DNA from: Gemmatimonadales bacterium
GTDB lineage: Bacteria; Gemmatimonadota; Gemmatimonadetes; Gemmatimonadales; GWC2-71-9
DNA: 64,000 bases
Assembly: GCA_035518815.1 (NCBI GenBank)
Contig: DATIXG010000074.1
Span: forward strand, 441 to 64,440
Direction: 5' to 3'
The position numbers and the translations under genes are program-made. The notes beneath the pieces are model-generated. The model saw only the letters and a program-made list of their open reading frames with translations, made no database searches and was not told the origin of the DNA. Below, piece by piece: positions 30,246 through 63,253 of this stretch. How positions within the stretch are numbered: the first letter of the stretch is position 1; the number at the start of each line of letters is the position of its first letter.

Positions 30246-30256
30246 AGGACCTCTCC

Positions 30257-35738: not shown

Positions 35739-35764
35739 TTCTAGCTCAGCTCAACCGAGAAAGC

Positions 35765-36181
35765 TTACCGGCAAACCGGCGCGCCTTCCGGATCCGCCGT
35801 CGTGGCCGGAGCCGCCGGAGCCTGCGCACCCACGTAAATCGCGCAGCTCTTGGTCGTGTTCTGGTTCGTGATGCTCGCGGTCCACCCAGCCTGGGTGCCC
35901 GTGCCGACCTGTGGCGCCGCCAGCGTGTTGCCGGTCGTCGTACAGAACGCGACCGTGCCTGCCGTCGGCGGATTGGCACAGGCGACGTTGGAGCTGTACT
36001 TGATCGAGTCAGCGAAGTAGGCCTCTTCCGCGGTGACCAGATTACGCAGGTCGGACTTCATCGACGCGATGTAGGCCTTCTCCTTCGTGTTCGCGAACTT
36101 CGGGATCGCGATCGCGGCCAAGATGCCGATAATCACGACCACGATCAGAAGCTCAATGAGTGTAAAACCCTTGCGGTTCAT
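35765..36181 (-). CDS. pilA: Type IVa major pilin (copy 2)
   Basis: Same 138-aa architecture. Differs from copy 1 at three residues (V to I, T to S, A to T). ATG 36181; the track ORF is over-extended to 36292. Confidence 0.9.
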   Translation of the reverse strand: MNRKGFTLIELLIVVVIIGILAAIAIPKFANTKEKAYIASMKSDLRNLVTAEEAYFADSIKYSSNVACANPPTAGTVAFCTTTGNTLAAPQVGTGTQAGWTASITNQNTTKSCAIYVGAQAPAAPATTADPEGAPVCR

Positions 36182-36240
36182 CAAGAAACCCCCCTCGCGA
36201 GAGCCGGTGACGTTCTTCCTGATCAGCGTGTACGGACCGG

Positions 36241-36256
36241 GGCAAGCCATATGCCG
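36241..36256 (-). promoter_or_regulatory. Sigma-54 (-24/-12) promoter for pilA copy 2
   Basis: The minus strand reads CGGCATATGGCTTGCC with correct GG/GC spacing, about 60 nt upstream of the ATG. Confidence 0.55.
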
Positions 36257-36381
36257 ATCATGGCCGAAGGCAGCTAACACGTTACGCCACAACGACCAAC
36301 GCGATTCTGAGTACTTGTTTCAAACTGCAAGAATCCGTGCATCGTGCGAGATATCGTGCCAGACGCAAGAGCGGCTAGATG

Positions 36382-42427: not shown

Positions 42428-42434
42428 CCGGCGG

Positions 42435-44048: not shown

Positions 44049-44685
44049 CGCGCCAAGTGATCTTCTTTCCCTCCGCGTAGGTGCGGCCACTGTAGGAAAT
44101 GGGCAGCTCCCAGATCCGCGCGCCCGCCTGCGCAAGCCGCGCGGTGATCTCAACTTCGAAGCCGAACCGGTTGGCGGTGAGCGGCAAGCGTTTCATCAAA
44201 TCGGCCCGGACCAGCTTGTAGCACGTCTCCATGTCCGTCAGGTTCAGGTTCGTGAACATGTTGGACAGGAGGGTCAGTACCCGGTTCCCGACCGCATGCC
44301 AGAAGTAGAGCACGCGATGCGGGCCGCCCTGGAAGCGGGAGCCGAAAACCGCGTCGGCCCTTCCGTCCAGGATGGGTTTCAGCAGCGTGGGGAGCTCATC
44401 GGGATCGTACTCGAGGTCCGCGTCCTGGATCACGACGACGTCGCCCGTGGCGAGGGCGATGCCCGACCGGATCGCGGCGCCCTTGCCCCGGTTTACGGGG
44501 TGGCGCTGCAGCGCGTCGAGCCGGCCCGCGCCCCGGAGCCGTTCGAGCACGCTGTCCGAGCCGTCTACCGATGCGTCGTCGATGGCAATCACCTCGATCT
44601 GCAGCGGCACCGCGCGCACCCGTTCTACTACCTGCTCAATCGTCGTTGCTTCGTTGTAGACGGGAATCAGAACCGACAGCTTCAC
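43978..44685 (-). CDS. GT2 family glycosyltransferase, polyprenyl/dolichyl-phosphate sugar synthase type (DPM1/Ppm1/GtrB-like)
   Basis: [54 protein letters not shown] (DxD). 235 aa with no TM. GTG 44685 overlaps the regulator TGA. Confidence 0.8.
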
Positions 44686-46097
44686 GCCTCCGTCCCCGCC
44701 CCAGCCCCCGTCCCTGCGACCGTCTTGGTCACGCCGTCGTAGCGGCTCAGCTTGCGATACAGGGTCGATGGGTCGATACCGAGCACCTCCGCCGCGCGGG
44801 TCTTGTTGCCGCCTTCGCTCTGCAGCACCCACGTGATGTAGGCTTGTTCGATCACATCGAGCGTGGGGTTCACGTGCGGGCGCTCCGCTACGAGCGGCTC
44901 GGCCCGCCGCTCACTGATCTTGGCGGGCATGGCATCGAGCCCGATCGTCTCGCCCTTGGTCAGCACCCCCGCTCGCTCGAGCGCGTTCTCGAGCTCTCGC
45001 ACGTTCCCCGGCCAGTCATAGCTCATGATCGCATCGAAGGCTTCGGCATCGAGCCGTTTGGGCGGCTCGCCGCGCTCGACCGCGATGCGCTCGAGGAATG
45101 CCTTGACGAGGATCTCGATATCGTCGCGGCGGTCGCGCAGCGGCGGCAGGTGAATCGCGATCACGTTGAGGCGGTAGTACAAATCGGTGCGGAAACGGCC
45201 GCGCTTGATGTCCTCTTCCAGGTCGCGGTTCGTCGCCGCCACCACGCGGACGTCCACGGGGATCGCTTCCGTCCCGCCCACCGGGATCGCTTCCCGCTCC
45301 TGCAGCACGCGGAGCAGCTTCACCTGCGTGGCGGGCGACATCTCGCCGATCTCATCGAGGAAGAACGTGCCGCCGCGTGCGGCCGCGAACAGGCCCTGTT
45401 TGTCGCGAACCGCGCCGGTGAATGAGCCTTTCACGTGCCCGAACAGCTCCGACTCGAGGAGGCTTTCGGGCAGCGCGCCGCAGTTGATCGACAGGAATGG
45501 GCCTTCGCTGCGCGTCGAGAGCTCGTGGATGTAGCGGGCGATGACCTCCTTGCCCGTCCCCGACTCTCCCTGAATGAGCACCGTGCTTTCGGTCGGGGCA
45601 ACCTGTTCGGCCAGCCTCAGGACGTCCTGGAAGGCGCGTGCCTTGCCCAGAGGCTTGTCCAACCCGGAGCGCTCGCGGCGGCGGATCTCCTGCTTCAGCT
45701 GCTTGTTCTCTGCCTTGAGACGCCGCACCTCTCCGGCGCGGCGGCACAGCGCGACGATCTCGTCGTTGGAAAAGGGCTTCTGGACGTAGTGGAACGCGCC
45801 TTCGTTCACCGCCTGGATGGCGCTCTGGAGGGATGCTTGGGCGGTCATGAGGATGACCGGCGTCTCGGGGTCCTGCTCCTTCACGGCAGCCAGGATCTCG
45901 ATTCCGGTCACGCCGGGCATCTTGATGTCCGTCAAGACGATATCCGGGGCGGCCGTCTTGATCTGCTCCAGGCCCGCCTTGCCTCCCTGCGCGGTGATGA
46001 CGTCGAACCCCTCGTTCTTGAGGAGGATGCGCAGGGTGTCGAGGATGCCCTGCTCGTCGTCGACAACGAGGATCGAGGGCTGTGCGCTGTCGTGCAT
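44682..46097 (-). CDS. Sigma-54-dependent response regulator (NtrC/PilR family)
   Basis: Canonical receiver ([25 protein letters not shown]), [30 protein letters not shown], Fis [19 protein letters not shown]. Confidence 0.9.
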
Positions 46098-48902: not shown

Positions 48903-50108
48903 TTACTGAACCGCGTTGACCATGTCGAAAATGGGCAGGTACATCGCGACCACCATGCCGCCGACGATCACGCCCAGCACGACGATCATGATCGGCTCCA
49001 TGAGGGAGAGCAGCGCGCTCACGGCCGCGTCCACTTCCTCGTCGTAGAAGTCGGCGATCTTCGACAGCATCTCGTCCAATCCGCCGGTCTGTTCGCCCAC
49101 GGCGATCATGGAAATCACCATAGGCGGGAAGACCTTGGACTTTTGCAGGGGCGCGGCGATGGTCTCACCGCCCGCGATCGACGCGCGCGACTCCATCACC
49201 GCGTTGTGGATCACCATATTGCCGGCGGTCCGGGCCGTGATCTCGAGGCCGTCGAGGATGGACACGCCGGACGAGATGAGGGTGCCGAGGGTGCGGGTGA
49301 AGCGGGACACGGCGGACTTCCGGATCAGATCGCCGAGCACGGGCATGTGCAGCAGCAACGTGTCGATCTGAAGCTTGCCCGGCGGCGTCTTGTAGTAGCG
49401 GGTGATCCCGATGCCGATGCCGATGATCGCGCCGCCCATGGCCCACCAGTAGTGCTTGAGCAGGTTGCTCGCGCCGATCACGATGCGCGTCGGCAGGGGC
49501 AGCTCGAGGTTCACTGACGCGAACATGTTCTGGAACGTCGGGATTACGAAGATCAGCAGCACGGTCACGGCGATCGCGGCGACCGACATGATCACCGCCG
49601 GATAGACCATGGCGCCCTTCACCTTGCGGATGATGGCGTCGTTCTTCTCGAGGAACTGGGCGAGCCGCAGCAGGATGGTGTCGAGAATACCGCCGGCCTC
49701 GCCGGCGGCCACCATGTTGACGTAGAGGTCGCCGAACGCCTTCGGATGCTTGCGGAGGGCGTCGGCGAGCGTGTGGCCGCTCTCCACGTCGTAGACCACC
49801 TGGCGCGTCACGTCGGCCAGGATCTTGTTCTCCGTCTGCTGGGCCAGGATGTCGAGCGCCTGGACCAGGGGCAGGCCGGCGTTGATCATGGTGGCGAACT
49901 GGCGGGTGAGCACCACGACGTCGCGCGTCTTGATGCCGCTGCCGAACTTGAAGCTGATCTTGAACTGCTTGGGCGCCTGCCGCACCTGCACCACGAGCAT
50001 GCGGTTCTTGCGCAGGTGCGCGACGACGTCGTCCTTCGACGGAAGGTCGACCTCGCCTTGCTGCAGCTCCCCTTTCAGGGTGCGCGCGGTGTACTGGAAT
50101 ACCGGCAT
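48903..50108 (-). CDS. pilC: Type IV pilus platform protein PilC (GspF family)
   Basis: 401 aa; duplicated GspF domains with three TM segments; follows pilT. Confidence 0.9.
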   Translation of the reverse strand: MPVFQYTARTLKGELQQGEVDLPSKDDVVAHLRKNRMLVVQVRQAPKQFKISFKFGSGIKTRDVVVLTRQFATMINAGLPLVQALDILAQQTENKILADVTRQVVYDVESGHTLADALRKHPKAFGDLYVNMVAAGEAGGILDTILLRLAQFLEKNDAIIRKVKGAMVYPAVIMSVAAIAVTVLLIFVIPTFQNMFASVNLELPLPTRIVIGASNLLKHYWWAMGGAIIGIGIGITRYYKTPPGKLQIDTLLLHMPVLGDLIRKSAVSRFTRTLGTLISSGVSILDGLEITARTAGNMVIHNAVMESRASIAGGETIAAPLQKSKVFPPMVISMIAVGEQTGGLDEMLSKIADFYDEEVDAAVSALLSLMEPIMIVVLGVIVGGMVVAMYLPIFDMVNAVQ

Positions 50109-50126: not shown

Positions 50127-51263
50127 CTATCGGCGGGCGGCCACCTTCTGTTGTCCGCTCGGCGTCGCGGTTCCAACCGGCTCCCGCTCGTCCATCGGGG
50201 GCTCGCCGATCATGCGCAGGAATTCGTTCGGGCTCGAGCTGACGCGGAGGCACTCCTCCTTGGACACCTCGCGGCCCATGTAGAGCTGGTACAGCGAGTC
50301 GTTCAGGGTCTGCATCCCGTATTTCTTCCCCGCCTGCATCGAGGACTCGATCTGGTGAACCTTGTCGTCCCGGATGAGTGCCCGGATCGCCGGCGTGCAC
50401 ACCATGATCTCCGCGGCCATCACGCGCCCCCGGCCCGTCACCTTCTGCAGCAACGTCTGGGTGAGCACGCCCTCCAGCACGAACGCGAGCTGGGCGCGGA
50501 TCTGCGATTGCTGGTGCGCCGGGAAGATGTCGATGATGCGGTTGATGGTCTCGGCCGCCGAGTTGGTGTGCAGCGTGGCGAAGGCCAGGTGGCCGGTCTC
50601 GGCGATCGTGAGGGCGGCCTGGGTCGTCTCGAGGTCTCGCATTTCGCCCACCAGCACCACGTCGGGATCCTGGCGCAGCGCGTACTTGAGCGCGGCCGCG
50701 AAGCTGTTCGTGTCGGTCCCCACCTCTCGCTGATTCACGATGCAGCTCTGGTGGCGGTGGATGAACTCGATCGGGTCTTCGACGGTGATGATGTGCCCCT
50801 TGAGCTCCCGGTTGATCTTGTCGATCATCGCCGCGAGGGTCGTGCTCTTGCCCGATCCCGTGGGCCCCGTAACCAGCACCAGGCCGCGGGGCCGCTCCGC
50901 CAGCTTTCCCACCACCTGTGGCAGGCCGAGATCGTCGAACGTGCGCACGTTGAAGGGGATCTGCCGGATGACGAGCGAGACACACCCGCGCTGCTTGAAA
51001 CAGTTCCCGCGGAAGCGCGCCAGGTTCTGGATCCCGAAGGAGAAGTCGAGCTCGCTTTCGGTCTCGAAGCGCTTCTTCTGGCTCTCGGTCAGCACCGAGT
51101 AAGCCAACGACAGCGTGTCCTTGGGGGTGAGCACCTCCGCGGTCGAGGCGTTCCCGATGTCGCCGTCGACGCGAAGCTTGGGCCGCTCGCCCGCGACAAT
51201 GTGAAGGTCGGAGGCGTCTTTCTCGATCATCTCTTCCAAGAGCGCCCGGAGGTTCACCGTCAT
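50127..51263 (-). CDS. pilT: Twitching-motility retraction ATPase PilT
   Basis: GPTGSGKSTTLAAMID Walker A, AIRALIRDDKVHQI (PilT AIRNLIRE-type motif); 378 aa. Confidence 0.9.
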   Translation of the reverse strand: MTVNLRALLEEMIEKDASDLHIVAGERPKLRVDGDIGNASTAEVLTPKDTLSLAYSVLTESQKKRFETESELDFSFGIQNLARFRGNCFKQRGCVSLVIRQIPFNVRTFDDLGLPQVVGKLAERPRGLVLVTGPTGSGKSTTLAAMIDKINRELKGHIITVEDPIEFIHRHQSCIVNQREVGTDTNSFAAALKYALRQDPDVVLVGEMRDLETTQAALTIAETGHLAFATLHTNSAAETINRIIDIFPAHQQSQIRAQLAFVLEGVLTQTLLQKVTGRGRVMAAEIMVCTPAIRALIRDDKVHQIESSMQAGKKYGMQTLNDSLYQLYMGREVSKEECLRVSSSPNEFLRMIGEPPMDEREPVGTATPSGQQKVAARR

Positions 51264-52975
51264 GCCGCCGTCTCCTTCACAACTTCGTCGAGTGTGGTAA
51301 TGCCGCGCTTGACCTTCAGCATGCCGTCCATCCGGAGCGTGAGCATGCCGTCCTTCACGGCCTGCTCCCGCAGCTCCTCGGTGGACCCGCCTTTGAGGAC
51401 GAGGCGCCGCAGGTGGCTACTCATGGCCATCACTTCGTACAGACCCTGGCGACCCTTATAGCCGGTCTCGTTGCAGGTATCGCAGCCCTGTCCCTTGAAG
51501 AACGTGAGCTTCGCCGCCTCGGCGACGGCGATCCCCAATGCGTGCAGCTCCTCATCCGAATATTTGCGCTCGGCCTTGCAGTTGCTGCAGATGCGCCGGA
51601 CCAGCCGCTGCGCCACGATGATGTTCACCGCGCTCGCCACGTTGAACGGCTCGATGCCCATGTCGATCATGCGCGTCACCGTCGACGGGGCGTCGTTCGT
51701 GTGCAGCGTGGACAGCACGAGGTGGCCCGTCAGCGCGGCCTTGATCGCGATGGACCCCGTCTCCATGTCCCGGATCTCGCCGACCATGATGATGTTCGGG
51801 TCCTGGCGCAAAAACGCCTTGAGCGCCGCCGCGAACGTCATCCCGACCTCGTTCCGCACGAGCACCTGATTGATGCCCATGAGGTTGTACTCGACCGGGT
51901 CCTCGGCCGTCATGATGTTCACTTCCATCGTGTTGATGCGCGACAGGGCGGAGTACAGCGTCGTGGTCTTGCCCGACCCCGTCGGACCCGTGACGAGCAC
52001 CATCCCGTACGGATTGAGAATCGCCCGCATCAGGTCCTGCTCGGCCTTTTGCTCGAAGCCGAACTTGGTCAGGTCGAGCGCCAGGTTGCCCTTGTCCAGA
52101 ATTCGCAACACGACCTTCTCGCCGAACAACACCGGCAGCGTCGACACGCGGAAGTCGATCACCCGGCTGCCCATCTTGAGCTTGATGCGCCCGTCCTGAG
52201 GGATGCGCCGTTCGGCGATGTTCAGAGCGGCCATGATCTTGACGCGCGAGGTGAGCGCCGCGCGCATCTTGATCGGCGGCTTCATGACCTCCTGTAGGGC
52301 CCCATCGATCCGGTACCGGACGCGCATCTCGTGCTCGAACGGCTCGATATGAATGTCCGACGCGCCACGGTTCACTGCGTCGGTGAGCAGTCCATTGATG
52401 AGCTTCACAACCGGCGCGTCGTCCGCCAGATCCTGCGCTTTGACATCCTCGTCCTGCGCCTCTTCGACGACCTCCAGGTCTTCCGCCGCTTCCACGCTCT
52501 TGAGGAGGCTCTGCAGCCGCACATCGCCCTGCTGGTAGTACCGCTCAATCGCGTTGCGCAGCGTGTACTCCCCGGCGATGACCGGAAAGACGTCGCAACG
52601 CGTGATGAACTTGATGTCCTCGATGGCGGTGACGTTGTTCGGGTCGACAATCGCGATCGTGAGCGTCCGCCCCTCGCGCTTCAAGGGCAGAACGGTGTGT
52701 TTGAGCGCGATGTCCCCGGGCAGGAGCTTGAGGATCCTGGGCTCCACCTCAAAGCGCGACAGGTCGACCGCCGGCATCCGGTACTGGCGGGCGAGCATCT
52801 TGGTGACCTCGGTTTCCTCGATGAAGCCGAGCTTCACCAAGGTGTAGCCGAGGCGCATCCCCGAGTTCTTTTGCTCGAGGAGGGCCTTTCTCAGCTGGTC
52901 CTGGGTTATCAGGCCTTCGCGGACGAGAATGTCGCCCAGCTTGTCCGAGGTGGCCGCTGCGGTCGCCGTATGCAA
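51260..52975 (-). CDS. pilB: Type IV pilus extension ATPase PilB
   Basis: N-terminal GSPII_E_N-type repeat (LGDILVREGLITQDQLRKAL), GPTGSGKTTTLYSAL, tetracysteine CSNC...CDTC. TTG start at 52975 with no nearby ATG. Confidence 0.9.
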   Translation of the reverse strand: MHTATAAATSDKLGDILVREGLITQDQLRKALLEQKNSGMRLGYTLVKLGFIEETEVTKMLARQYRMPAVDLSRFEVEPRILKLLPGDIALKHTVLPLKREGRTLTIAIVDPNNVTAIEDIKFITRCDVFPVIAGEYTLRNAIERYYQQGDVRLQSLLKSVEAAEDLEVVEEAQDEDVKAQDLADDAPVVKLINGLLTDAVNRGASDIHIEPFEHEMRVRYRIDGALQEVMKPPIKMRAALTSRVKIMAALNIAERRIPQDGRIKLKMGSRVIDFRVSTLPVLFGEKVVLRILDKGNLALDLTKFGFEQKAEQDLMRAILNPYGMVLVTGPTGSGKTTTLYSALSRINTMEVNIMTAEDPVEYNLMGINQVLVRNEVGMTFAAALKAFLRQDPNIIMVGEIRDMETGSIAIKAALTGHLVLSTLHTNDAPSTVTRMIDMGIEPFNVASAVNIIVAQRLVRRICSNCKAERKYSDEELHALGIAVAEAAKLTFFKGQGCDTCNETGYKGRQGLYEVMAMSSHLRRLVLKGGSTEELREQAVKDGMLTLRMDGMLKVKRGITTLDEVVKETAA

Positions 52976-53020: not shown

Positions 53021-53443
53021 TCAATGGGCGGGCGGCTCCACCCCCGAAAAAGTGACGAAACGACGCACCACGTCCAGCAGGCGGGGGCCGACCCCCGGCA
53101 CGCTGTCCAGGCGTTCAAGACTGCCAAACGGACCGTGTTCGGTGCGCCAGGCGACGATCCGCTCTGCCAGTGAGGGCCCGACGCGAGGGAGGCGCGTGAT
53201 CTCCGTCACGTCCGCGCGGTCGAGGTCCACCCGCTCGCCTGGCAGGAGCGGGCGGGAGAGGCGTTCGGCGGTGTGCGCGCGTTGCGCGAGGCCGCTCTCG
53301 GGCGGTGTGTCCACCGGCATGAGCCTCACGTCGCCCGGGGCGGCTGCGGCGGACTGTCCCGTCCGAGGCGAGAGGCCGTAGCGCACCCCCGCGCCCACGA
53401 GGGCGAGCGCGCTCAAGAGCAGGGCGGCACGGCGGTCGTCCAT
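53021..53443 (-). CDS. comEA: ComEA-like helix-hairpin-helix DNA-binding protein
   Basis: TM anchor, then VDLDRADVTEITRLPRVGPSLAERIVAWRTEHGPFGSLERLDSVPGVGPRLL (tandem HhH). ATG 53443; the track ORF is over-extended to 53506. Confidence 0.75.
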   Translation of the reverse strand: MDDRRAALLLSALALVGAGVRYGLSPRTGQSAAAAPGDVRLMPVDTPPESGLAQRAHTAERLSRPLLPGERVDLDRADVTEITRLPRVGPSLAERIVAWRTEHGPFGSLERLDSVPGVGPRLLDVVRRFVTFSGVEPPAH

Positions 53444-53502
53444 GGAGCCAATGTGACGGTGCGCCCGTACACAGCGGTACCCGTTCTGCGCGGGGAGCGC
53501 CG

Positions 53503-53548
53503 GCAAATTGCCGAAGTCGGAAGGCGGAAGGCGGAACAGAACGAACCG
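53503..53548 (-). other. Nested hairpin with GGAAGGC repeats downstream of the M28 gene
   Basis: gaagtcggaa (53503-53512) pairs with ttccgacttc (53539-53548). Inner pair cggaac/gttccg. ggaaggc occurs twice in tandem. Adjacent palindrome cggcaaattgccg at 53491-53503. Confidence 0.3.
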
Positions 53549-53571: not shown

Positions 53572-54480
53572 CTAGCGCACCAGCGCCACAGCAACATCTC
53601 CAACGATTTGGAGGGACGCCGCGCTCACCTTGTCGATCGTATCCTCGGTCGTGTGCCAGTAGGGATAGTCGAAGTCGACCACGTCGATGGCATGCACGCC
53701 TGCCTTCTGGAGCGACACGTGATCGTCGATCAGCGTGTGCCGGACGCCCGGCCGGAACTGCGCGCCGTGGCCGATGTCGTGGGCGACGCGCCAGACGCGA
53801 TCCACCACCTCGGGCGCCGTCGCTTGCGAGTTTCCTTCGTAGTAGATCTCGAGGTTCTTGTCGCCGACCATGTCGAACAACACGGCGTAGAGCGGCGCGT
53901 ATCCCGCAGGCTGGTGCGCGGCAAAGTAGCGGGACCCGATCAGGACGTCGGTCGAATCCGCGAAGTCGCCGTAGTCCTCGCCGTCGACGAACAGCAGGTC
54001 CACGCCGAGCGCGGGTGGGGTGGCCTTGAGCGCGTCCGCCACACCCAGGAGGACGGCGACGCCCGAGGCGCCATCGTTCGCGCCCGGCACCGGCATGCGC
54101 TGAGCGGCGAGGTTGGCGCTCTGGTCGGCATGGGGGCGCGTGTCCCAGTGAGCGAGGAACAGCACGCGCTCGGTGGCGGCGGGGCGGAAACGACCGAGGA
54201 AGTTCCGCAGCGCGAGCTTCGATCCGCGTTTCGTGACGTGCGTGAAGGCCTGGACCACGACGGTATCCGCGCTCGCGCGCAACCGCTCGAGGATCCAGTC
54301 GCCGGTCTGCTCGTGGGCCGGGGTTCCCGGCACGCGCGGTCCGAACTCGACTTGCCGGCGCAGGTACTCGAACGCCCGCTGGCCGTCGAACTTCTGCCCT
54401 CCTCCCGACCGCGCCCCCCCCGACCCCGCCCGGCAGGCGAGCAGCAGTCCCACCACCGCCAATCGCGCGGCCCGGCTCAC
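53572..54480 (-). CDS. M28-family zinc enzyme, glutaminyl-cyclase-like lipoprotein
   Basis: Lipobox LLLAC, then AHWDTRPHAD, GANDGASGVAVLLGVA, LLFVDGEDYG, YWHTTEDT (M28 metal-ligand blocks; DGED resembles cyclase-type more than AEE aminopeptidase-type). GTG 54480 overlaps the upstream TGA. The track ORF is over-extended to 55083. Confidence 0.7.
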   Translation of the reverse strand: MSRAARLAVVGLLLACRAGSGGARSGGGQKFDGQRAFEYLRRQVEFGPRVPGTPAHEQTGDWILERLRASADTVVVQAFTHVTKRGSKLALRNFLGRFRPAATERVLFLAHWDTRPHADQSANLAAQRMPVPGANDGASGVAVLLGVADALKATPPALGVDLLFVDGEDYGDFADSTDVLIGSRYFAAHQPAGYAPLYAVLFDMVGDKNLEIYYEGNSQATAPEVVDRVWRVAHDIGHGAQFRPGVRHTLIDDHVSLQKAGVHAIDVVDFDYPYWHTTEDTIDKVSAASLQIVGDVAVALVR

Positions 54481-57400
54481 CGGATCTGACCGACGTTGGT
54501 CGAGAAATTCACGAACAGGGTGACGCCGAGCTGCCCGGTTTTGTGGTTCGTCTGACGCTCGTCGTTCAGCTGGTACGCCATCTGGAACCCCGCGGTCAGA
54601 GAGGGAGGGAAAGCGGTATCGAGTGTAAGCTGTGCCTGCCGCTGCCTCGTGTCCACGTACGGGACGCAGGTCATCTGCGCCGCCGTCTGAAGGCAGGTGG
54701 TGTTGGCGCTCGCGTGGTAGGTCGCGTTGGCGCGAATGGAGCCCTTGAGGCGCATGATCACCGATGGCGGACGGAAAGAGAAGATCAGCGAGGCGTTCTC
54801 GACGCTGGCGCTCGTATGGAACAGGTTGCCGGCGTTGAGTGCATCGCTCGTGGTCTGCGACAGGTCGTAGGATGTGGAGACGCCGCCCGGCCAGGTGAGC
54901 GTCACCGCCGGCCCGATCGCGGTCTCCGTGGTCTGGGTGCTCGAGACCGCGGCCCCTCCCCCGAACAGCGCCTGCGCGGCGTCCGTCTCGCGACGGCGGT
55001 AGGTCAGGCGGGCGGAGAGCCCCCGGATCACCCAGCGAGTCCCCGACGGGGTGAGATTCCACGTCACGACCCCCGACGGCCATTCGACGTTGCTGGTCTG
55101 AAGCGGGACCTGCTCGCCCCCCCGGACCACCCAGGTGATGCCCCGCGTCCGCAGGTAGTTCGCCGTGAGCTTGAGACCGAGCACGAGGTCCAGGGCACCC
55201 GCCGCGTTGAGATTCAAGTTGTCCGACGCCGACCCGGCCAGGAGGTCCCCCTGCTTGCGGAAATCGTCGATCCCGCCGAGGGCCAACTGATAGCTCAACG
55301 GCGGCACGTCGGGCGCCCCGAAGTAGCTCGAGCTGTAGCCGCGGCCGTAGGACACGTCGAGGTTCGACAGGCGGCCCAGGAGTTGGGTCGCGGTGGCTTT
55401 CTCACCGAACACCCGCTGCCCGAGCCGGCGCACGTCGAGCTGGGCGCCTACGTTCGCTCGGCGCGAATTGCTGTAGGCCGTCGGGATGTGGAATCCGCCG
55501 GCGGTGTCGCCGATGTCGCGCACCGGGGCGGCGGCGTTGGGATCGCGGTTGAACGTGAAGACCGTCGTGAGCGTGAACCGCGGCCGCAGCCAGTCGCTCA
55601 CCCGGGGGGTGAGACCGAGGAACGTATTCATGGCCCGCTGGGTCTCGATGCCGGCGTTCAGCCCGAGGAACGTCTGGCTCTCCTGCTGCACCAGGCGTCC
55701 GCGCGTGGTCGTATCGCCGTAATCTCGCAGGTCGCGGCCCGAGCTGAGCGCGCCGCGGAGCTGCACGGCGGTCACGGGCAAGAAGTCCAGGCCCCCGGAC
55801 GTGCGCCACACCTTGCTCTGAGACAACGCGGGGGCGAGCAGTGAATCGGTCGGCAGGGCAATCGGCACGCCGTAGGTGAAGCGGGACCCATCCGCGCCCG
55901 CCAAGGTCGATTGCAGGCGGACGGCGCTGGGCGTGACGCGCACCCCCGCCAGCCTGATCGAACCTGGCAAGAGGGCGTAGTCGACCGAGCCGGCGTAGGA
56001 GGACGCCTTGGCGTACGTCAGATCGCTCCGCGTGCTGCCGTTCAGATACGAGCCGGACAACGCGAACGGGTCGAGGATGTAGCGCATCAACGCCGAGTTC
56101 GAGCGCCGGGCATGACGCAGCGTCGCCGCGTAGCTCATGGCCGTGGACTGCGGCGTGCGCAAGGCCCCGCCGAGCGCCGCCGCCTGAATGTCGGTCCCGG
56201 ACAGGTAGAACGGATCGCTCGCCGTCCGCGCATAGCGCACTGAGATCGGCAGCACCACGCCCCAGCGGTCGGGCAGGAAGCGCTGCATCTGGATCGTGCC
56301 CCCCATGCTGAGCCCGTTGTCGGTGGAGTAGCTCGGATCCTCCGCCAGCTGGCGGAACTGGTCGTCCTTGTGCGACACACTGAGCGCGAAGTCGCCGACG
56401 TCGGCCGCGATCAGCGTGAGGTCGAGCGCGGCCGCGGTCCCCGCGTCCTGGACGACGTCGCTCAGGCGGATGTCGTCCACCCACAGCTCCGCCTGATCGA
56501 CAGTGGTGTGCGTGTCCACGCGCCAGATGCCCGCCGCGAGCTCCCGGACGGCGGCGAGATTGGGCGGGCCGGTGGCGGGATCGCGCACGTGGATGACGTA
56601 GGGACCGTCGCACATCACGTAGGCGGAATCCGACGGGACGAGCACGCTGTCGGGGCAGCCGGGGTACACGTGTGGCAGCTCGCCTTTGAGCCACGCCTGT
56701 TCGACGCTCGCCCGGAGCGCGAGCCAGCGACTGAAATCCACCACGGCTTCCGGCTCCCATGTCGTGACGTGCGCGGGCGCGTGATAGAAGTAGAAGTTGT
56801 CGGCGTCTTTCGCGACCTTGATGTAGAAGTGGAGGTCGCCCTCCTCCCACCCCGCCCCGCGGCCGCGCGCCCACACGCGCATACGGCGGTACTTGAGGAA
56901 GTTCTTGTCACCCACCGTGGTGAACTGCAGGAACGCCTCCGCGCGCTGCCCGCGCTCGAGCCCGCTGCCCAGCACGCGGAGCGAGCGCTCATTGATCTGC
57001 GTCGCCCCGATCTGGACGCCTGCGTCCACACGGGACGCCTCGTCGGTGACGCCGGGCGGTGGCGTGTAGCCGAGGTCCACGTTCTCCGTGCTCACGGTCG
57101 AGGCCACCACGTCGCCCGTGCCCGTCGCGTCGCTCCCGCTGATGCCGCGCAGCGGTGTGTCGGCGCGCTTGAGCCAGGTCGCGCCGACCAGGCGCACGCG
57201 GGAGAGGCCGAAGTACACCTGGGGGTCGGGTCGGCCCGCCGGGGCCGTGTGCGGCGCCACGACCGTGATGCGCACGTCCTGCACCTGGCGCAGCGACGGC
57301 GTGCCCTGGACGAGCGTATCGGTCCGGAAGGGAATGCGGTAGAGGCGCCAGCCGGCGAATCCGTCGGGATTGCCGAGGGAGTCCTTCGCTGGCGTCATGC

Positions 57401-60400
57401 CGCCGTCGCGGACGTAGTAGCGGTCGTCGCCGATCGCGAACACGTACCGCACGAAGCTCTCGGACGTTCGCACGCCCGCCGCCGAGTCCAGCTGGAAGTC
57501 GCCGTCCCCATCCTCGGTGTCGATCGCGTCGTTGTGGCGCCCGCACCGGGAGCGCAGGTCGCCGAATCCGTAGTGCGCGATCGTGCCGTTCACCGATGCG
57601 CTGCACAGCGGCAGCGTGTCGACCAGGGCGCCGGTGGTCGCATTCCAGATCCCGTCCACCACGCGATCGGTCAGGATGCCCTCATCGTTGATGGCGGCAT
57701 TCCAGGAGCGCGTGAGCAGGTCGGACTCGGTATCGAGCCGCCCCACACCGGCACGATGGTAACCGCCGTACGTCGTGTCTCCCCCGGTGACCGTGAGGGT
57801 CTCCGGCACGAACGCCGTGGCGTCCTCGAAGACCGAGCCGAAGTCGATCAGCAGCGCGGTCTGGTTGGCCTTCGCGGTGCGGTGGCTGTCTTCCCACACC
57901 CACAGCTCGAGGTACTCGACGCGGGAGAGATCGATGCCCGTCGGCGCGAGCACCTGCGAGATGGAGCGCCAGCGCGGGCCGTCCTGATGCGGCCGGACCC
58001 AGTTGGGCAGGCCCGTCGTCGCGTTCGCGAGTCCGAGCACCGTATCGGGCTTGAGCATGATCCACAGCGCGGGCTCTTCCGACTGGGCCTGCCCCACGGT
58101 GCGGATCGTCGGATCGATCTGTTGCGCGGAGAACTGGACAGGCGAGCCGTCCCGATTGTACGGCACGCTCTGCCAGGTGAGCGCCGCGGCGTTGACGGTG
58201 TCGAAGGGCACGCCGCTGAATCCGTACGGCTCCGCGCCGCGCGTCGTGGTCGGAAGGCTGCCCCAGTGCCAGGCCGCGTCGTCCAGCGTGAGAAAGCGGC
58301 CGGACTCGCCCTCGAAGTCCTCGACCGTCGCCTCGCCGAGCGGATTGGGCCGGGGGCGCGACCGGGCGACCTCCGCGGAGACGTTGAGAAACGACGGCGC
58401 CTGGGTGTGGAGGCCCGGCAGCGCGTCGAGCGCCCGAGTGACCCAGTCGGGCTTGAAGTGCAGCTCGGTGGAGATGCCCCCGATGAAATTCGACGAGGGC
58501 TCGGAGCCGAGCGGGGGCCGCGTGAACGCGCTCTGCTGCCGCTGGAACAGGCCCGTGAGGTTCACTTCGCCGCGTTCGCCCAGATCGTAGCGCGCGGCAA
58601 GTCCGTAGATGGATGTGGGGGCGACGGCGAATGCCGCGCGCTCCTCGAACCGAGCCTGGACCTGGGTCGCGCCGCCGGTGAACAGCGAATCGGGATTCCT
58701 GAACAACACCGTGCCGGTCGCGTAGTCGATGGTGTAGTCATCGCCGCGCGCGAGCTGCCGGCCGCCGACCGTGATGCGCTCGCTTCCCTCGCGGATCTGA
58801 AAGCTGTTCAGCGACAGCGAGCCCCGGTCCCCTTCGAGCGACGCGCTGGCGTGCAGGACCAGGGAGAAGATGGCGGGTGAACCCTGCGTGAGCAGCAGCA
58901 CGCGCGGGGTCCGGTACAGCGAATCGTTCCGCTCGCCGGCCGCGAGCTTCGTGGAGTCGGCGAACGGCGTGAGGTGCGGAAAAATGATGAAATAGTCCCG
59001 CACGGGCGATCCCTGATCCGGGTCGCGCGCGCGGGGAAACAGGCGATTGTATTCGTCGAACTTGGTCGGGTCGGACGGCAGCGCGAGTCCCAGACGCGCG
59101 AGATAGGTCTCGCCGGTGGTGAGCGTCTTCTCGCGCTGGTTCACGGTCAACGTCAGCCGGACCGTTTCGCGCGTGATCTCGGCGCCCCCCACCCGATATG
59201 CGCTGCGAATCTCGAACCGAAACGACGGCGCGGCGGCGGTGAGCGCAGGCCGTGGATCGTACACGAGGCGCAGGGTGTCGACCACCGTCGGATTGGGATT
59301 CGCGACGATCGGATACGTACCGACGCACGGGCTGCCAATCCCGCACCCCTCCTGGCCAACCGGGACGTACGACACGGCCAGGTAGTCGCTCTGATCGAGC
59401 CGCGTGGCGAGTGCGAACCATTCGCCGCTCGGGTCGACGTAGTAGTCCTTCCCTTCCTGGAGCACCTCCCACTGGAAGGGTCCGGCGCGCTGCGCGGTGC
59501 AGTCCACGGCGAGCACGGTACCCGCGCCGCAGGCGACCGCGCGGACGCCGCCGATGTTCTGGTTGATGACCGAGGTGGGCGACGTGGCGCGCAGGCGATA
59601 TACGCGGAGGCTGCCGACGCGTACGTTGGTAGGGAGCGCGGCGGGATCGAGGTTCAACACGTCCACCGCGGGGTATCCGGGCACGAGCGCGGGGTCCACC
59701 GTGAAGAAGAAGCGTCCCGGCTCGTACTCCGCGTCGCGGGCCACGCGGTCCACCGGCTCGGTCGTCGTCTGTCCGATGGTGAACGTGCGGTCCTGCACCA
59801 CGCTGCCTTTCTGCTCCGCGTAGATGCCGCGCAGCTCGAGCGCCCCGATCTGCGCGACGGCCTGCACGCCGAAGTTGTTGGCCGGGATCGCGGCCGAGAT
59901 GAAGCGCGAGCGCGGCATCTGGAACGTCACGTTGCCGGCCTCGACGCGGCGCAACACCTCGTCCTCGAGGCCTTCGTACCACACCTGGATGTTGTTGTTG
60001 GCGTCGAACTCGCGCTGGCTGTCGAAGTCGACGTTCACATGGAGCCGCTGGGCCACGGTGCCACCCGTGCGGATGGCGTACTGCGGCGTCGGCGTGATGG
60101 TCGGAAACCCGGGACTGCACCCCGAGAGCGCCTGCAGCTCGTCCAGTGACGAGCAGCGGAGGTTGCGGAACTGATCGGCCTTGAGCTCGAAGCGGAGATT
60201 GAGCTGCATGCCGATATCGGCATAGGGTCCGAGCAACCCGCGATGCGTCGCGGGAGGGGGCGTTGGGGGGGCGGCCCCGGCCGATTCCGCCGCCGCGCGG
60301 GCGGCGAGCGCGGCGAGAACGGCCGCGGACGCGAGGGCGCCGGTTTGAAACGACAGCGACGCGCGCACGCGCGCTTCCCACGCGGCTGCGGCGAGCTCGG

Positions 60401-60575
60401 GCGACGTCCGCGGCCCGAGGCGGCCGCCGGGCTCGAGCGCGGCGATGACGGGGACGGCAATGGGCGCCGCGTGAAATGAGGCAACGAACTGGGGCGCCGC
60501 GGCTTGATCCTGAGCATGGGCGAGGGGTACGACGACCGACAGGGCGAGAAGACCGGCCAGGGTGGGGCGCCGCAT
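54477..60575 (-). CDS. Giant (2032 aa) outer-membrane beta-barrel protein, SprA-like (T9SS translocon family candidate)
   Basis: Signal peptide MRRPTLAGLLALSVVVPLAHA/QDQ. The N-terminal block VNVDFDSQREFDANNNIQVWYEGLEDEVLRRVEAGNVTFQMPRSRF...GVQAVAQIGALELRGIYAEQKGS matches my recollection of the conserved SprA N-terminal region. The rest is amphipathic beta-strand-rich throughout. The track ORF is over-extended to 61001. Confidence 0.6.
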   Translation of the reverse strand: MRRPTLAGLLALSVVVPLAHAQDQAAAPQFVASFHAAPIAVPVIAALEPGGRLGPRTSPELAAAAWEARVRASLSFQTGALASAAVLAALAARAAAESAGAAPPTPPPATHRGLLGPYADIGMQLNLRFELKADQFRNLRCSSLDELQALSGCSPGFPTITPTPQYAIRTGGTVAQRLHVNVDFDSQREFDANNNIQVWYEGLEDEVLRRVEAGNVTFQMPRSRFISAAIPANNFGVQAVAQIGALELRGIYAEQKGSVVQDRTFTIGQTTTEPVDRVARDAEYEPGRFFFTVDPALVPGYPAVDVLNLDPAALPTNVRVGSLRVYRLRATSPTSVINQNIGGVRAVACGAGTVLAVDCTAQRAGPFQWEVLQEGKDYYVDPSGEWFALATRLDQSDYLAVSYVPVGQEGCGIGSPCVGTYPIVANPNPTVVDTLRLVYDPRPALTAAAPSFRFEIRSAYRVGGAEITRETVRLTLTVNQREKTLTTGETYLARLGLALPSDPTKFDEYNRLFPRARDPDQGSPVRDYFIIFPHLTPFADSTKLAAGERNDSLYRTPRVLLLTQGSPAIFSLVLHASASLEGDRGSLSLNSFQIREGSERITVGGRQLARGDDYTIDYATGTVLFRNPDSLFTGGATQVQARFEERAAFAVAPTSIYGLAARYDLGERGEVNLTGLFQRQQSAFTRPPLGSEPSSNFIGGISTELHFKPDWVTRALDALPGLHTQAPSFLNVSAEVARSRPRPNPLGEATVEDFEGESGRFLTLDDAAWHWGSLPTTTRGAEPYGFSGVPFDTVNAAALTWQSVPYNRDGSPVQFSAQQIDPTIRTVGQAQSEEPALWIMLKPDTVLGLANATTGLPNWVRPHQDGPRWRSISQVLAPTGIDLSRVEYLELWVWEDSHRTAKANQTALLIDFGSVFEDATAFVPETLTVTGGDTTYGGYHRAGVGRLDTESDLLTRSWNAAINDEGILTDRVVDGIWNATTGALVDTLPLCSASVNGTIAHYGFGDLRSRCGRHNDAIDTEDGDGDFQLDSAAGVRTSESFVRYVFAIGDDRYYVRDGGMTPAKDSLGNPDGFAGWRLYRIPFRTDTLVQGTPSLRQVQDVRITVVAPHTAPAGRPDPQVYFGLSRVRLVGATWLKRADTPLRGISGSDATGTGDVVASTVSTENVDLGYTPPPGVTDEASRVDAGVQIGATQINERSLRVLGSGLERGQRAEAFLQFTTVGDKNFLKYRRMRVWARGRGAGWEEGDLHFYIKVAKDADNFYFYHAPAHVTTWEPEAVVDFSRWLALRASVEQAWLKGELPHVYPGCPDSVLVPSDSAYVMCDGPYVIHVRDPATGPPNLAAVRELAAGIWRVDTHTTVDQAELWVDDIRLSDVVQDAGTAAALDLTLIAADVGDFALSVSHKDDQFRQLAEDPSYSTDNGLSMGGTIQMQRFLPDRWGVVLPISVRYARTASDPFYLSGTDIQAAALGGALRTPQSTAMSYAATLRHARRSNSALMRYILDPFALSGSYLNGSTRSDLTYAKASSYAGSVDYALLPGSIRLAGVRVTPSAVRLQSTLAGADGSRFTYGVPIALPTDSLLAPALSQSKVWRTSGGLDFLPVTAVQLRGALSSGRDLRDYGDTTTRGRLVQQESQTFLGLNAGIETQRAMNTFLGLTPRVSDWLRPRFTLTTVFTFNRDPNAAAPVRDIGDTAGGFHIPTAYSNSRRANVGAQLDVRRLGQRVFGEKATATQLLGRLSNLDVSYGRGYSSSYFGAPDVPPLSYQLALGGIDDFRKQGDLLAGSASDNLNLNAAGALDLVLGLKLTANYLRTRGITWVVRGGEQVPLQTSNVEWPSGVVTWNLTPSGTRWVIRGLSARLTYRRRETDAAQALFGGGAAVSSTQTTETAIGPAVTLTWPGGVSTSYDLSQTTSDALNAGNLFHTSASVENASLIFSFRPPSVIMRLKGSIRANATYHASANTTCLQTAAQMTCVPYVDTRQRQAQLTLDTAFPPSLTAGFQMAYQLNDERQTNHKTGQLGVTLFVNFSTNVGQIR

Positions 60576-60578
60576 CCC

Positions 60579-60607
60579 TTGTAGAGGCGTGGAGGTGCGA
60601 ATATAAT
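60579..60607 (+). promoter_or_regulatory. Sigma-70-type promoter candidate (TTGTAG-17-TATAAT) in the sprA-like/lptF divergent gap
   Basis: A perfect TATAAT at 60602-60607 overlaps the track ATG of lptF (60606). TTGTAG lies at 60579-60584 with a 17-nt spacer. Confidence 0.3.
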
Positions 60608-62171
60608 GGCGCGACCGACCGTGCGCATCCTCAATCGCTACCTGCTGCGCCAGCATGTCGCTCCGCTCGCGTTCGCACTCGCTGCACTCACGTTCTTTCT
60701 CCTCATCCAGCAAGTCGCGAAGCAGCTCGGCAACCTCGTCGGGAAGGGCTTGCCGTGGGGCGTCATCATTCAGGTGTTCGCGCTCTCGATCCCGTTCATC
60801 GTGGCGACGACGCTGCCCATGGCCGTCCTCGTCGCCGTGCTGTACGCGTTCACGCGCCTCGCGACCGATAACGAGATCACCGCCATGAAAGCCGGCGGCG
60901 TCAGCATCTGGCAGCTGCTCCATCCCGTGCTGAGTGGAGCGCTCGCCGTGGCGCTCGTCGCCTTCGTCTGGAACGACCAGGTGCTCCCCCGGTCCAATCA
61001 TGAGCTGCGGATGCTGCTCATGGATATCCAGCGCAAGAAGCCGTCATTCAGCCTCAAGGAACAGGTCATCAACGAGGTCGTGGCAGGCCAGTTTTTTCTG
61101 CGCGCGGCACGAATCGACCCTGCGTCGAACAAGCTCAAGGATGTGACGATTTACGACCTGGGGGACGCCGAGCGACGACGGTTCATCAGCGCCGACAGCG
61201 GGCAGATGGCTTATACCCCCGGGGGGCAGGACTTATACCTCACGCTGCGCGACGGCGACATCCGTGAAGTGAAGCGCAGCGACCCCAGCCAATTCAATCG
61301 AACGTTTTTTCAGACGAACCGCATCCGGGTCGCCGGCGTCGGTAACACGCTGGAACGGACGGAGAACGACTCCTACCGCTCCGACCGCGAAATGGGCTCG
61401 TGCGAAATGCTGGGCATCGTCCGCGACACGAGGCGCGACGTGGCCGACGCGATGCAGGAGGGCCGTCGCGCGGTGCAGAGCGATCTGCGGCACCTGGCGG
61501 GCCTCGGGGCGCTGCCCGTGCCCCCTACGGTGAAGGCGCCGGCGGACTCGACGCCCGTGGGCGTCTACTGTCGCGTGCTCGCCTGGGTGGCGGGGTGGCT
61601 CAAACCCGCCACGGCGGCCGCGCAGACACCCGGCCGGCGCGCGGCGCGTCCCGCGCATCCTGCGCGTCCACCACTCCCACCGCCGCCGGCCCGCGTCCCG
61701 CTCGTCCAGAATCCCGTGCCGGGCCAACGCCCCCCGGCGGTCCTCAGCCCGGTATTGAGTGACGCAGCCGTCTCCGCGGCGCGGGTGCGCACCGATATCG
61801 CACTCGATCGCGAGGCGCGACTCACGGTCGAGATCCACAAGAAGTTCGCGCTCGCGGCGGCGTGCGTCGTGTTCGCGTTGCTGGGCGTACCGGTGGCGAT
61901 TCACTTCCCGCGAGGCGGCATCGGACTGGTGATCGGCGTGAGCCTGGTGGTCTTCACGATCTACTACATCGGGTTGATCGGCGGCGAGGAGCTGGGCGAC
62001 CACCGTGTGGTCTCTCCGGTGCTCGCCATGTGGGCCGCCAACGGGCTGTTCACGCTCCTCGCGCTCATCGGCTTCGTGCTCGCCCGCCGGCCCGCGCACA
62101 GCATCTCCGGCGCGAACTGGGCGGACATCGGAAGCGTGCTGCTCGGACCGCTGGCACGGCGGCGGCGGTGA
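60606..62171 (+). CDS. lptF: LPS export permease LptF (YjgP/YjgQ family) with Pro-rich insertion
   Basis: RILNRYLLRQHVAPLAFALAALTFFLL N-terminus; six TM in a 3+3 layout. The true start may be GTG 60621 (VRILNRYLL). Confidence 0.85.
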   Translation: MARPTVRILNRYLLRQHVAPLAFALAALTFFLLIQQVAKQLGNLVGKGLPWGVIIQVFALSIPFIVATTLPMAVLVAVLYAFTRLATDNEITAMKAGGVSIWQLLHPVLSGALAVALVAFVWNDQVLPRSNHELRMLLMDIQRKKPSFSLKEQVINEVVAGQFFLRAARIDPASNKLKDVTIYDLGDAERRRFISADSGQMAYTPGGQDLYLTLRDGDIREVKRSDPSQFNRTFFQTNRIRVAGVGNTLERTENDSYRSDREMGSCEMLGIVRDTRRDVADAMQEGRRAVQSDLRHLAGLGALPVPPTVKAPADSTPVGVYCRVLAWVAGWLKPATAAAQTPGRRAARPAHPARPPLPPPPARVPLVQNPVPGQRPPAVLSPVLSDAAVSAARVRTDIALDREARLTVEIHKKFALAAACVVFALLGVPVAIHFPRGGIGLVIGVSLVVFTIYYIGLIGGEELGDHRVVSPVLAMWAANGLFTLLALIGFVLARRPAHSISGANWADIGSVLLGPLARRRR

Positions 62172-63253
62172 AGACCCTCGACCGCTACCTCCTGCGCGAG
62201 TGGCTCAGGATCGTCCTCCTGGCGGAGATCGGCTTTCCACTCGTCGTGATCATCATCGACCTGACGGACAAGCTCGGCTCCTACCGCGCCCGCGGACTCA
62301 CGCGGGGAGCCGTGGCCTTGTCGTACGTCTATTACCTGCCGGAAGTGATGTTCCTCGTGCTTCCCGCCGCGGTCCTGTTTGCGACCGTCTTCACGGTCGG
62401 CCCCATGGCTCGCCACTCCGAGCTGACGGCAGCCAAGGCGTCCGGTCTTTCGTTCCACCGCGTGATTCGTCCTCTGCTCCTGGCCGCCGGAGGGGCCGTG
62501 CTGTTCGGCATCGTCGTGGGCGAGCTCGCGCCCGTGGGCACGCTGCGCCGCGCGGAGCTCTTGGGACAGCGGCCCGTGCGCTCGAGCGGCGCCACCCGCT
62601 CGAACTTCGTGTACCGTGCTGACGGGGGTTGGGTCTACGCGGTCCGGATCCTCGAGACGGGATCGGGAACCATGCGGGACATCATCATGGAGCAGTCCGG
62701 CAAGGGACCTGACTATCCGACGATCGAGATCGCGGCGGCACGCGCGAGCTATCAGCCCAAGGGACCGCACCGTGGCTGGACCCTGCTCCAGGGCACCGTC
62801 CGCTACCTGGAGGGTGGCGACAAAGAGACGGCATTCACGTTCGACACCCTCACGGTGCGCGCGCTGCGGGAGCGGCCGATCGACCTGCTCGCCGAGCCCA
62901 AGGCCCCCGAGGAAATGCGGTCGGCGGAGCTGGGCCGCTACATCGACGCGCTCGCGCGCAGTGGCTCCGATACGAAGAAGCTGCGCGTGGAGCGCGCGCT
63001 GAAGCTCGCTGTGCCATTTACCTGCATTGTCGTCGCGCTGTTCGGCGCGCCACTCGCCGTCTCCGGGCCGCGGGCCGGCACCGCCTGGGGCGTGGCCGTG
63101 AGCCTCGGCACCACGTTCGTTTTCCTCTTGCTGGTGCAGCTCACCAAGGCCGTCGGGGCCGGGGGCGTGCTGCCACCCGTGTTCGCGGCCTGGCTGCCCA
63201 ATCTGGCCTTCGGGGGAGCGGCAGTGTGGTTATTGAGGAAGGCGAGGACGTAG
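62168..63253 (+). CDS. lptG: LPS export permease LptG
   Basis: VKTLDRYLLREWLRIVLLAEIGF N-terminus. GTG 62168 overlaps the lptF TGA. The track ORF is over-extended to 61862. Confidence 0.85.
   Translation: MKTLDRYLLREWLRIVLLAEIGFPLVVIIIDLTDKLGSYRARGLTRGAVALSYVYYLPEVMFLVLPAAVLFATVFTVGPMARHSELTAAKASGLSFHRVIRPLLLAAGGAVLFGIVVGELAPVGTLRRAELLGQRPVRSSGATRSNFVYRADGGWVYAVRILETGSGTMRDIIMEQSGKGPDYPTIEIAAARASYQPKGPHRGWTLLQGTVRYLEGGDKETAFTFDTLTVRALRERPIDLLAEPKAPEEMRSAELGRYIDALARSGSDTKKLRVERALKLAVPFTCIVVALFGAPLAVSGPRAGTAWGVAVSLGTTFVFLLLVQLTKAVGAGGVLPPVFAAWLPNLAFGGAAVWLLRKART

Follow-up and report, generated by a model that had tools for sequence, protein, structure and literature searches.

A predicted glutaminyl cyclase and a SprA-family protein encoded as an overlapping pair in a conserved envelope gene array of Gemmatimonadales

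In Bacteroidetes, most exported proteins, whatever their destination, carry glutamine (Gln) directly after the signal peptidase I site, a pattern known as the Q-rule that is found together with a lipidated glutaminyl cyclase (QC) (PMC5837995; PMC10653852). The Q-rule was called Bacteroidetes-specific or exclusive, with scattered high values elsewhere, such as 77% in Ignavibacterium album, and its coincidence with the T9SS (type IX secretion system) was noted as striking yet unexplained (Bochtler et al. 2018, PMC5837995). Gemmatimonadetes are mentioned neither in the text of that study or of PMC10653852 (Szczesniak et al. 2023), nor in the 2018 supplements, and no literature tying Gemmatimonadota to glutaminyl cyclase was found. 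Here, we describe a 64,000-nucleotide (nt) stretch of a soil Gemmatimonadales bacterium (assembly GCA_035518815.1, contig DATIXG010000074.1, positions 441 to 64,440; hereafter the window), in which the gene of a QC-like lipoprotein (qc) overlaps the end of a gene for a giant protein of the SprA/Sov family (sprA). The pair is read, with fairly good confidence, as two ordinary orthologues, a general QC and a SprA translocon, that reside in a conserved envelope gene array.

Both genes lie on the minus strand. The sprA open reading frame (ORF; 54477..60575, ATG at 60575, TGA at 54477-54479) encodes 2032 amino acids (aa), and direct reading of the sequence gives a 21-aa Sec signal peptide (60513..60575) at the N-terminus MRRPTLAGLLALSVVVPLAHA/QDQ, where the slash marks the predicted cleavage site. 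A charged n-region and a hydrophobic core lead to an AHA site, after which Gln22 (CAG codon, 60510..60512) is the predicted N-terminus of the mature protein. The qc gene (53572..54480) starts with GTG and encodes a 302-aa lipoprotein that begins VSRAARLAVVGLLLAC; its signal peptide, likewise read directly, ends in the lipobox LLLA-C (54433..54480, Cys16 codon 54435-54433). At the junction, ...ATCCGGTGAGCC..., the sprA TGA (54479-54477) and the qc GTG (54480-54478) overlap in the tetranucleotide GTGA (54477..54480; GGTGAG, 54480-54477). The initial annotation had given the 2032-aa frame with its AHA/QDQ site, the TGA/GTG overlap and the 302-aa LLLAC lipoprotein, and every detail was confirmed in the sequence. 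Public gene calls match both proteins exactly (2032 aa identical; QC 100% identical over 302 aa). A longer, 2174-aa reading of sprA from an ATG at 61001 was rejected; it runs antisense to the divergent lptF gene and has no signal peptide.

Profile searches and structural modelling together indicate that the 2032-aa protein is a SprA/Sov-family orthologue, as the initial annotation had proposed. The protein matched TIGR04189 ("T9SS outer membrane translocon Sov/SprA", NCBIfam) with 486.7 bits, compared to a cut-off of 200, and Pfam SprA_N (PF14349) with 52 bits, compared to a cut-off of 27, so that the suggested check by hidden Markov models of the SprA family, once run, exceeded both thresholds. 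The TIGR04189 match fell into three stretches, the best of which paired residues 373-933 with model positions 376-968 of 2319. A single-sequence search retrieved Flavobacterium johnsoniae SprA (FjSprA; 6H3I) with E=1.7e-28, and a profile of 18 Gemmatimonadales orthologues, 30-66% identical to the window protein, matched 6H3I/6H3J with E=4e-73. In the profile alignment, residues 163-309 and 372-1611 paired with FjSprA 168-313 and 436-1785, and the N-terminal ~160 and C-terminal ~420 residues had no sequence alignment to FjSprA. Since the C-terminal part could not be aligned, residues 1000-2032 were modelled with AlphaFold2, using an input alignment of 50 database homologues. The SprA translocon of Bacteroidota is a giant barrel of 36 strands; the partial model (predicted local distance difference test score, pLDDT, of 73) contains ~25 long strands over residues 1380-2023, in keeping with the earlier description of the protein as beta-rich. 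Its best matches in the Protein Data Bank (PDB) were 8GL8, 8GL6, 6H3J, and 6H3I (E=3e-28 to 5e-23; query template modelling score, TMq, ~0.5, best 0.53), with 13-14% identity to the SprA chains, and the next PDB match reached only 1e-6; the fold match thus covers the part that escaped sequence alignment. NCBI and JGI name the homologues "cell surface protein SprA" or "motility/secretion related protein SprA". None of the SprA partners PorV, Plug, PPI, and SprE was identified for the Gemmatimonadales protein. PMC12635249 provides no SprA-specific cysteine motif for comparison; the disulfide partners described in it are SprF, PorG, and GldK, not SprA.

The 302-aa lipoprotein is assigned, from sequence and predicted fold, to the bacteroidal-type type II QCs and not to the aminopeptidase-type M28 proteins. 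Its sole Pfam match, Peptidase_M28 (118 bits), would also suit a conventional co-catalytic M28 aminopeptidase, with Gln at +1 a coincidence, and so would weak NCBIfam matches to aminopeptidase and DapE models, which lie far under their cut-offs, and the public name "M28 family peptidase", which some records carry in place of "glutamine cyclotransferase". However, the closest solved relatives were the QCs from Tannerella forsythia (TfQC, 6QRO), Bacteroides vulgatus (BvQC, 3GUX), Porphyromonas gingivalis (PgQC, 6QQL), and B. thetaiotaomicron (BtQC, 4FUU), with E=1e-55 to 1e-52, whereas the same query reached human QC at 1e-7 and the best true aminopeptidase (YwaD) at 3e-6. A Foldseek search with the model of the lipoprotein (pLDDT 71; predicted template modelling score, pTM, 0.77) returned glutaminyl cyclases for all of the top 50 PDB matches, led by BtQC with a TM-score of 0.80. 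The comparison of QC and aminopeptidase subfamilies that the initial annotation had called for, run in this way by sequence and by fold, placed the QCs closest and upheld the glutaminyl-cyclase reading.

Individual residues led to the same assignment. In PgQC and TfQC, a single zinc site is formed by Asp149, Asp183, and His299 (PgQC numbering), with Asp rather than Glu as the second ligand, and the residue that follows the first ligand is Gly150 in bacteroidal QCs, Asn/Asp in aminopeptidases, and Ser in animal QCs (PMC7948796). When PgQC, TfQC, and BvQC were aligned with 82 Gemmatimonadales orthologues, H111, D136-G137, E168-D169, D203, D253-H254, and H276 (window numbering) were found to be invariant in 82/82. 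The mono-zinc hallmark set of the bacteroidal enzymes, D136-G137, E168-D169, and H276, is therefore present in the window QC and its orthologues, and the Asp-Gly and Glu-Asp motifs are those that distinguish bacteroidal QCs from aminopeptidases in PMC7948796. The position of PgTrp298 is occupied by Trp in 65 and by His in 17 of the 82 orthologues; PgTrp193, PgPhe294, and PgTrp298 are conserved in bacteroidal QCs but are not presented as defining activity (PMC7948796). The lipobox Cys is retained in nearly all orthologues. With the Q-rule signature seen in the secretome (see below) added to these results, an aminopeptidase is very improbable.

The Q-rule appears, on sequence evidence, to extend to Gemmatimonadales. 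Among public gene calls for SprA homologues with a signal peptide, Gln stands at +1 after a (-3,-1)-compatible site in 99/103; position -1 is Ala in 98, position -3 is A, V, L, or G, position -2 varies, and position +2 may be D, A, E, G, or V. The four calls that deviate seem to be truncated. For other secreted proteins, ORFs in all loci (see below) were called by codon-position G+C and then screened for signal-peptide-like N-termini. The cleavage site is ambiguous in Ala-rich peptides; it was therefore counted whether any (-3,-1)-compatible site precedes each amino acid. A first automatic signal-peptide predictor placed noisy sites in such peptides (Q in 14/70), and a count over all 41 "families" (Q 0.27) was diluted by Rossmann-type and spurious ORFs; both were replaced by a curated count. 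Gln was found at +1 in 12 of the 14 independent, curated families, a small and local sample with heuristic signal-peptide calls, which bears out the Q-rule that the initial annotation had predicted for this high-GC lineage. The binomial probability of 12/14 is 2.5e-7 with a null rate of 0.2, and the per-family +1 frequency of Q (0.83) compares with those of D (0.15), T (0.20), and E and N (0 each).

The Gln-bearing families are diverse. Besides SprA, a TonB-dependent-receptor-like family had Gln at +1 in 16/16 members (...A/QG(V/A/S)), and a 205-aa family in 8/8 (x/QAALTPAD). The remainder comprise Sortilin/BNR, CarboxypepD_reg, SnoaL-like, S9 peptidase, S41 peptidase, and beta-lactamase-family proteins (Pfam), and three families without a Pfam match (342, 366, and 194 aa).

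The setting of the pair was compared over a locus set with one genome per species, which held 80 QC loci, all from Gemmatimonadales, and one metagenome contig (81 in total); architecture was assigned by tblastn with the window proteins, and 79 loci were informative. For both proteins, the nearest relatives are encoded in metagenome-assembled genomes (MAGs) labelled Gemmatimonadales, Gemmatimonadaceae, or Gemmatimonadota, and QC identity to the species-representative genomes reached 79% at best. The order lptG-lptF <> sprA-qc-comEA-pilB-pilT-pilC, with lptF and lptG divergent, was found in 60/79 informative loci. In those 60, the sprA stop and qc start overlap by 4 nt in 43 (ATGA in 34, TTGA in 5, GTGA in 4) and by 1 nt in 2, and in the remaining 15 the qc start lies 2-241 nt after the sprA stop. 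The recurrence of the pair in 60 species loci, with a 4-nt overlap in 43, makes the observation more than chance. The other 19/79 loci keep the order unchanged, minus sprA, so that lptF directly adjoins the QC gene. In a neighbor-joining tree of QC, these loci are spread over at least five distinct groups, and several are placed among close relatives that possess sprA (for example, L002 and L008 beside L001 and L017). This scattered absence is most simply read, from the sequences at hand, as repeated loss. The QC gene and the downstream pilus genes are present in all loci, including those without sprA.

Two side observations concern the loci themselves. In three long-read MAG assemblies (L039, L056, and L081), sprA is split over two to three frames, and the frameshifts may represent either pseudogenes en route to loss or uncorrected indel errors. 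Two QC loci, L020 and L034, whose products share 74% and 68% identity with the QC of the window, derive from a single MAG (DATNOR01), reflecting either a second QC copy or a mixed bin.

The distribution of the two genes bears on whether they form a dedicated module, in which SprA would be the specific or principal substrate of QC and the coupling would serve its pyroglutamylation. The 4-nt overlap kept in 43/60 loci and the almost invariant Gln at +1 of SprA (99/103) would be expected of such a module. However, the QC gene remains, unmoved, in the 19 species, spread over at least five clades, that have no sprA at this locus, and Gln at +1 is equally conserved in unrelated secreted families, those of sprA-less species included: the receptor and 205-aa proteins of sprA-less loci L002, L004, L005, L007, L008, L014, and L020 keep it. 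The QC of P. gingivalis is, moreover, general, essential, and unlinked to sov (PMC10653852). A dedicated module is, thus, improbable, and the special enzyme-substrate pairing implied by the initial annotation is not supported, given the 19 species that keep the QC gene alone and the 12/14 families with Gln at +1. Judged by the same 12 families, SprA would be just one of many substrates. Of the two genes, qc is the constant element and sprA an accessory; QC does not exist for SprA, and the tight coupling between the two genes is best explained as operon economy.

The sprA gene itself raises the question of a T9SS. Apart from SprA, no T9SS family was found when ~40 window ORFs were compared with Pfam, nor when the pair plus ten other ORFs, six of them lacking a Pfam match, were compared with NCBIfam, in agreement with the earlier statement that the window holds no other T9SS gene. 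NCBIfam and PDB sequence searches of the unannotated window proteins found no hidden T9SS parts. Neither a core partner gene (porK/L/M/N, porV, sprE/porW, sprT/porT, or porU) nor a cargo protein with the C-terminal domain (CTD/Por_Secre_tail) was present in the window (64 kb) or within the 81 loci, which span ±10 kb. In the literature, a search for Gemmatimonad* together with T9SS, SprA, or PorV/Gld genes yielded only a passing remark in PMC11285876, a review that lists Gemmatimonadetes among the phyla possibly possessing a T9SS. Judged from sequence and model, a canonical or reduced T9SS encoded elsewhere in the genome is somewhat more probable than not.

It is also conceivable, as the initial annotation had allowed, that SprA operates outside a canonical T9SS, as a stand-alone outer-membrane conduit or as a partner of the pilus/competence machinery (comEA, pilBTC, pilQ), with no PorK/L/M/N genes. 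The setting of sprA, a type IV pilus supercluster of 35 kb in which it probably shares an operon with comEA-pilBTC, would suit such a role, as would the lack of other T9SS genes and of Por_Secre_tail cargo just described, and the protein is ~370 aa shorter than FjSprA, with its last ~420 aa unalignable by sequence. However, the pilus and competence genes are intact in the 19 sprA-less species and so do not need SprA, the fold match to SprA spans the C-terminal half, and the review cited above allows for a T9SS in the phylum. T9SS genes are normally scattered in Bacteroidota, and a 64-kb stretch without them is therefore scarcely informative. A role outside the T9SS is, on balance, unlikely. 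A related and speculative proposal, held to be doubtful, is that Gemmatimonadales SprA functions without the PorK/L/M/N motor-ring, as a stand-alone or differently energised translocon, possibly for the pilus/competence genes, and represents an ancestral or minimal T9SS pore. If this were true, the polymorphism for sprA, with QC and Gln at +1 in both kinds of species, would separate the Q-rule from type IX secretion.

Several points weigh against the reading of a general QC and a SprA translocon in a conserved, co-transcribed array. The missing T9SS partner genes and cargo count here, and the dispensability of sprA in a quarter of species lowers the certainty of a T9SS. For the losses, sprA could lie elsewhere in the 19 genomes scored as lacking it. 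The 14 families of the Q-rule count, seemingly genuine signal peptidase I substrates, were drawn from within ~10 kb of one locus, and a home-made heuristic, rather than SignalP, served to call the signal peptides; the two exceptions to Gln at +1 are the window PilQ (ALA/GFRGG) and a 310-aa family, possibly membrane-anchored. Confidence in the QC model is moderate (pLDDT 71), and substrate handling could differ from that of the bacteroidal enzymes, as the PgTrp193 position is Val in 77/82 orthologues and an 8-aa loop with PgPhe294 is deleted in the Gemmatimonadales QCs. Finally, a scan for promoters and terminators over 48.8-61.2 kb yielded no signal beyond chance level, and sprA-qc-comEA contained no terminator.

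The genes around the pair complete the array. Next downstream of qc on the minus strand is a comEA-like gene (53021..53506), whose product combines an N-terminal membrane anchor with a helix-hairpin-helix domain (Pfam HHH_3) and matches TIGR00426 (ComEA HhH region) below the family cut-off; its position is kept in nearly all loci. It is followed on the same strand, with close spacing and conserved synteny, by pilB (51260-52975; Pfam T2SSE/MshEN), pilT (50127-51263; T2SSE), and pilC (48903-50108; T2SSF). On the plus strand, the divergent lptF (60606-62171) and lptG (62168-63253), both matching Pfam LptF_LptG, overlap in a GTGA at 62168-62171. The start codons of sprA and lptF are 30 nt apart (60576-60605); each promoter must, therefore, lie within the opposite gene.

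A mechanism that would account for the arrangement can be proposed. The QC would be a mono-zinc enzyme, which is anchored by its lipidated Cys at the periplasmic face of the envelope. By analogy with P. gingivalis, it would cyclise the N-terminal Gln that signal peptidase I leaves on most exported proteins into pyroglutamate, presumably shielding them from aminopeptidases. SprA, a predicted giant outer-membrane beta-barrel with an AHA/Q site, would be one of the many substrates, and its most likely role is that of translocon in a type IX-like pathway, any other parts of which would be encoded elsewhere. The conserved envelope array lptG-lptF <> sprA-qc-comEA-pilB-pilT-pilC is probably co-transcribed. 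Where sprA is present, the overlap of the QC start with the sprA stop means that QC translation is probably coupled to that of sprA, via reinitiation where the two codons overlap. In species that have lost sprA, the QC gene would come first behind the same divergent lptF control region.

The wider window has a G+C content of 65-72%, and essentially all genes from 2500 to 60600 lie on the minus strand, over 58 kb, consistent with the high-strand-bias region that is conserved in Gemmatimonadota chromosomes (PMC11237797). G+C is lower, at 58%, in the first 2 kb (1-2000), where a tetratricopeptide-repeat (TPR) protein and an HD domain protein of the HD-GYP type are encoded. Most of the window is a single type IV pilus supercluster, comprising pilQ, pilO/N/M, minor pilins, two pilins, a glycosyltransferase block, a PilS/PilR-like two-component pair, pilC/pilT/pilB, the ComEA-like gene, qc, and sprA.

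Within the supercluster, the stretch from 35066 to 44832 on the minus strand is likely a pilin-glycosylation module. It contains a GT2 polyprenyl-phosphate glycosyltransferase (43978-44832), four tandem paralogues of multi-transmembrane (multi-TM) PMT_2/GT-C-like type, 48-58% identical (36382-38001, 37910-39421, 39418-40911, and 42435-44153), an 8-TM protein that lies among these paralogues but is unrelated to them (40901-42427), and, directly downstream of the glycosylation block, two pilin genes (35066-35518 and 35765-36319), all on the minus strand. Over this block, the AT skew is strongly positive (0.2-0.33). Two further minus-strand proteins of the supercluster, an 845-aa putative lipoprotein beside pilQ (18394-20931) and a 696-aa protein among the minor pilins with an N-terminal hydrophobic, membrane-anchor-like segment (28326-30416), had no Pfam, NCBIfam, or PDB sequence match. 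In a 564-aa minus-strand protein (4047-5741), domains of 4Fe-4S ferredoxin and of Fe-only-hydrogenase large-subunit-like type are followed by a diguanylate cyclase (GGDEF) domain at the C-terminus, and its domain composition suggests that it may be a redox- or H2-sensing synthase of cyclic di-GMP.

Both family assignments already stand in public annotation. What is new are the evidence for the Q-rule in Gemmatimonadales, the conserved stop/start coupling of sprA and qc, and the presence/absence polymorphism of sprA. The Q-rule and its cyclase have so far been described as a speciality of Bacteroidota, and a second phylum now appears to follow. A constant QC combined with a variable sprA provides a natural experiment for separating the Q-rule from SprA, and the divergence of this SprA (13-14% identity in structural alignment) makes it useful for finding out what in the translocon is essential. 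For annotation, the results support renaming these "M28 family peptidases" as glutaminyl cyclases.

Among the closest described systems, the T9SS outer-membrane translocons FjSprA (Fjoh_1653; 6H3I, 6H3J, 8GL8) and Sov of P. gingivalis have in common with the window protein a TIGR04189 score at equivalog level, homology over residues 163-1611, and a Sec signal peptide; a C-terminal wall of long beta-strands is likewise predicted, and SprA is the best structural match by more than 20 orders of magnitude. However, the window protein has 2032 aa, compared to 2403 aa in FjSprA. In contrast to its counterparts in Bacteroidota, this sprA belongs to Gemmatimonadota, lies in a type IV pilus/lptFG cluster, is coupled to a QC gene, and appears to have been repeatedly lost within the order. 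The Q-rule of Gemmatimonadales, compared with that of Bacteroidetes, is drawn from 14 families and from sequence alone.

The bacteroidal QCs (PgQC PG2157, TfQC, PiQC, BtQC; 6QQL, 6QRO, 4FUU/7D1E) share with the window enzyme the M28 alpha/beta fold, the lipoprotein signal, the Asp-Asp-His zinc ligands, the Asp after the catalytic Glu, and the Gly after the first Asp ligand, and the equivalents of HsAsp248 and of the DDH residues are conserved as in those enzymes. Identity in structural alignment is ~35%, with TM-scores of 0.78-0.80. The window QC differs from PgQC in having Val for PgTrp193 and a PgPhe294 loop that is 8 residues shorter, and the P. gingivalis QC gene shares an operon with PG2158 and hemG (PMC10653852), unlike the neighborhood described here. 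Outside Bacteroidota, the solved QCs of the planctomycete Fimbriiglobus ruber (7D1B; E=2e-39, TM 0.78) and of an Acidobacteriales bacterium (7D18; E=4e-29, TM 0.77), for which no reported link to the Q-rule or to sprA was found, mean that type II QCs beyond that phylum are not new in themselves. Both are less similar to the window QC than are the bacteroidal enzymes.

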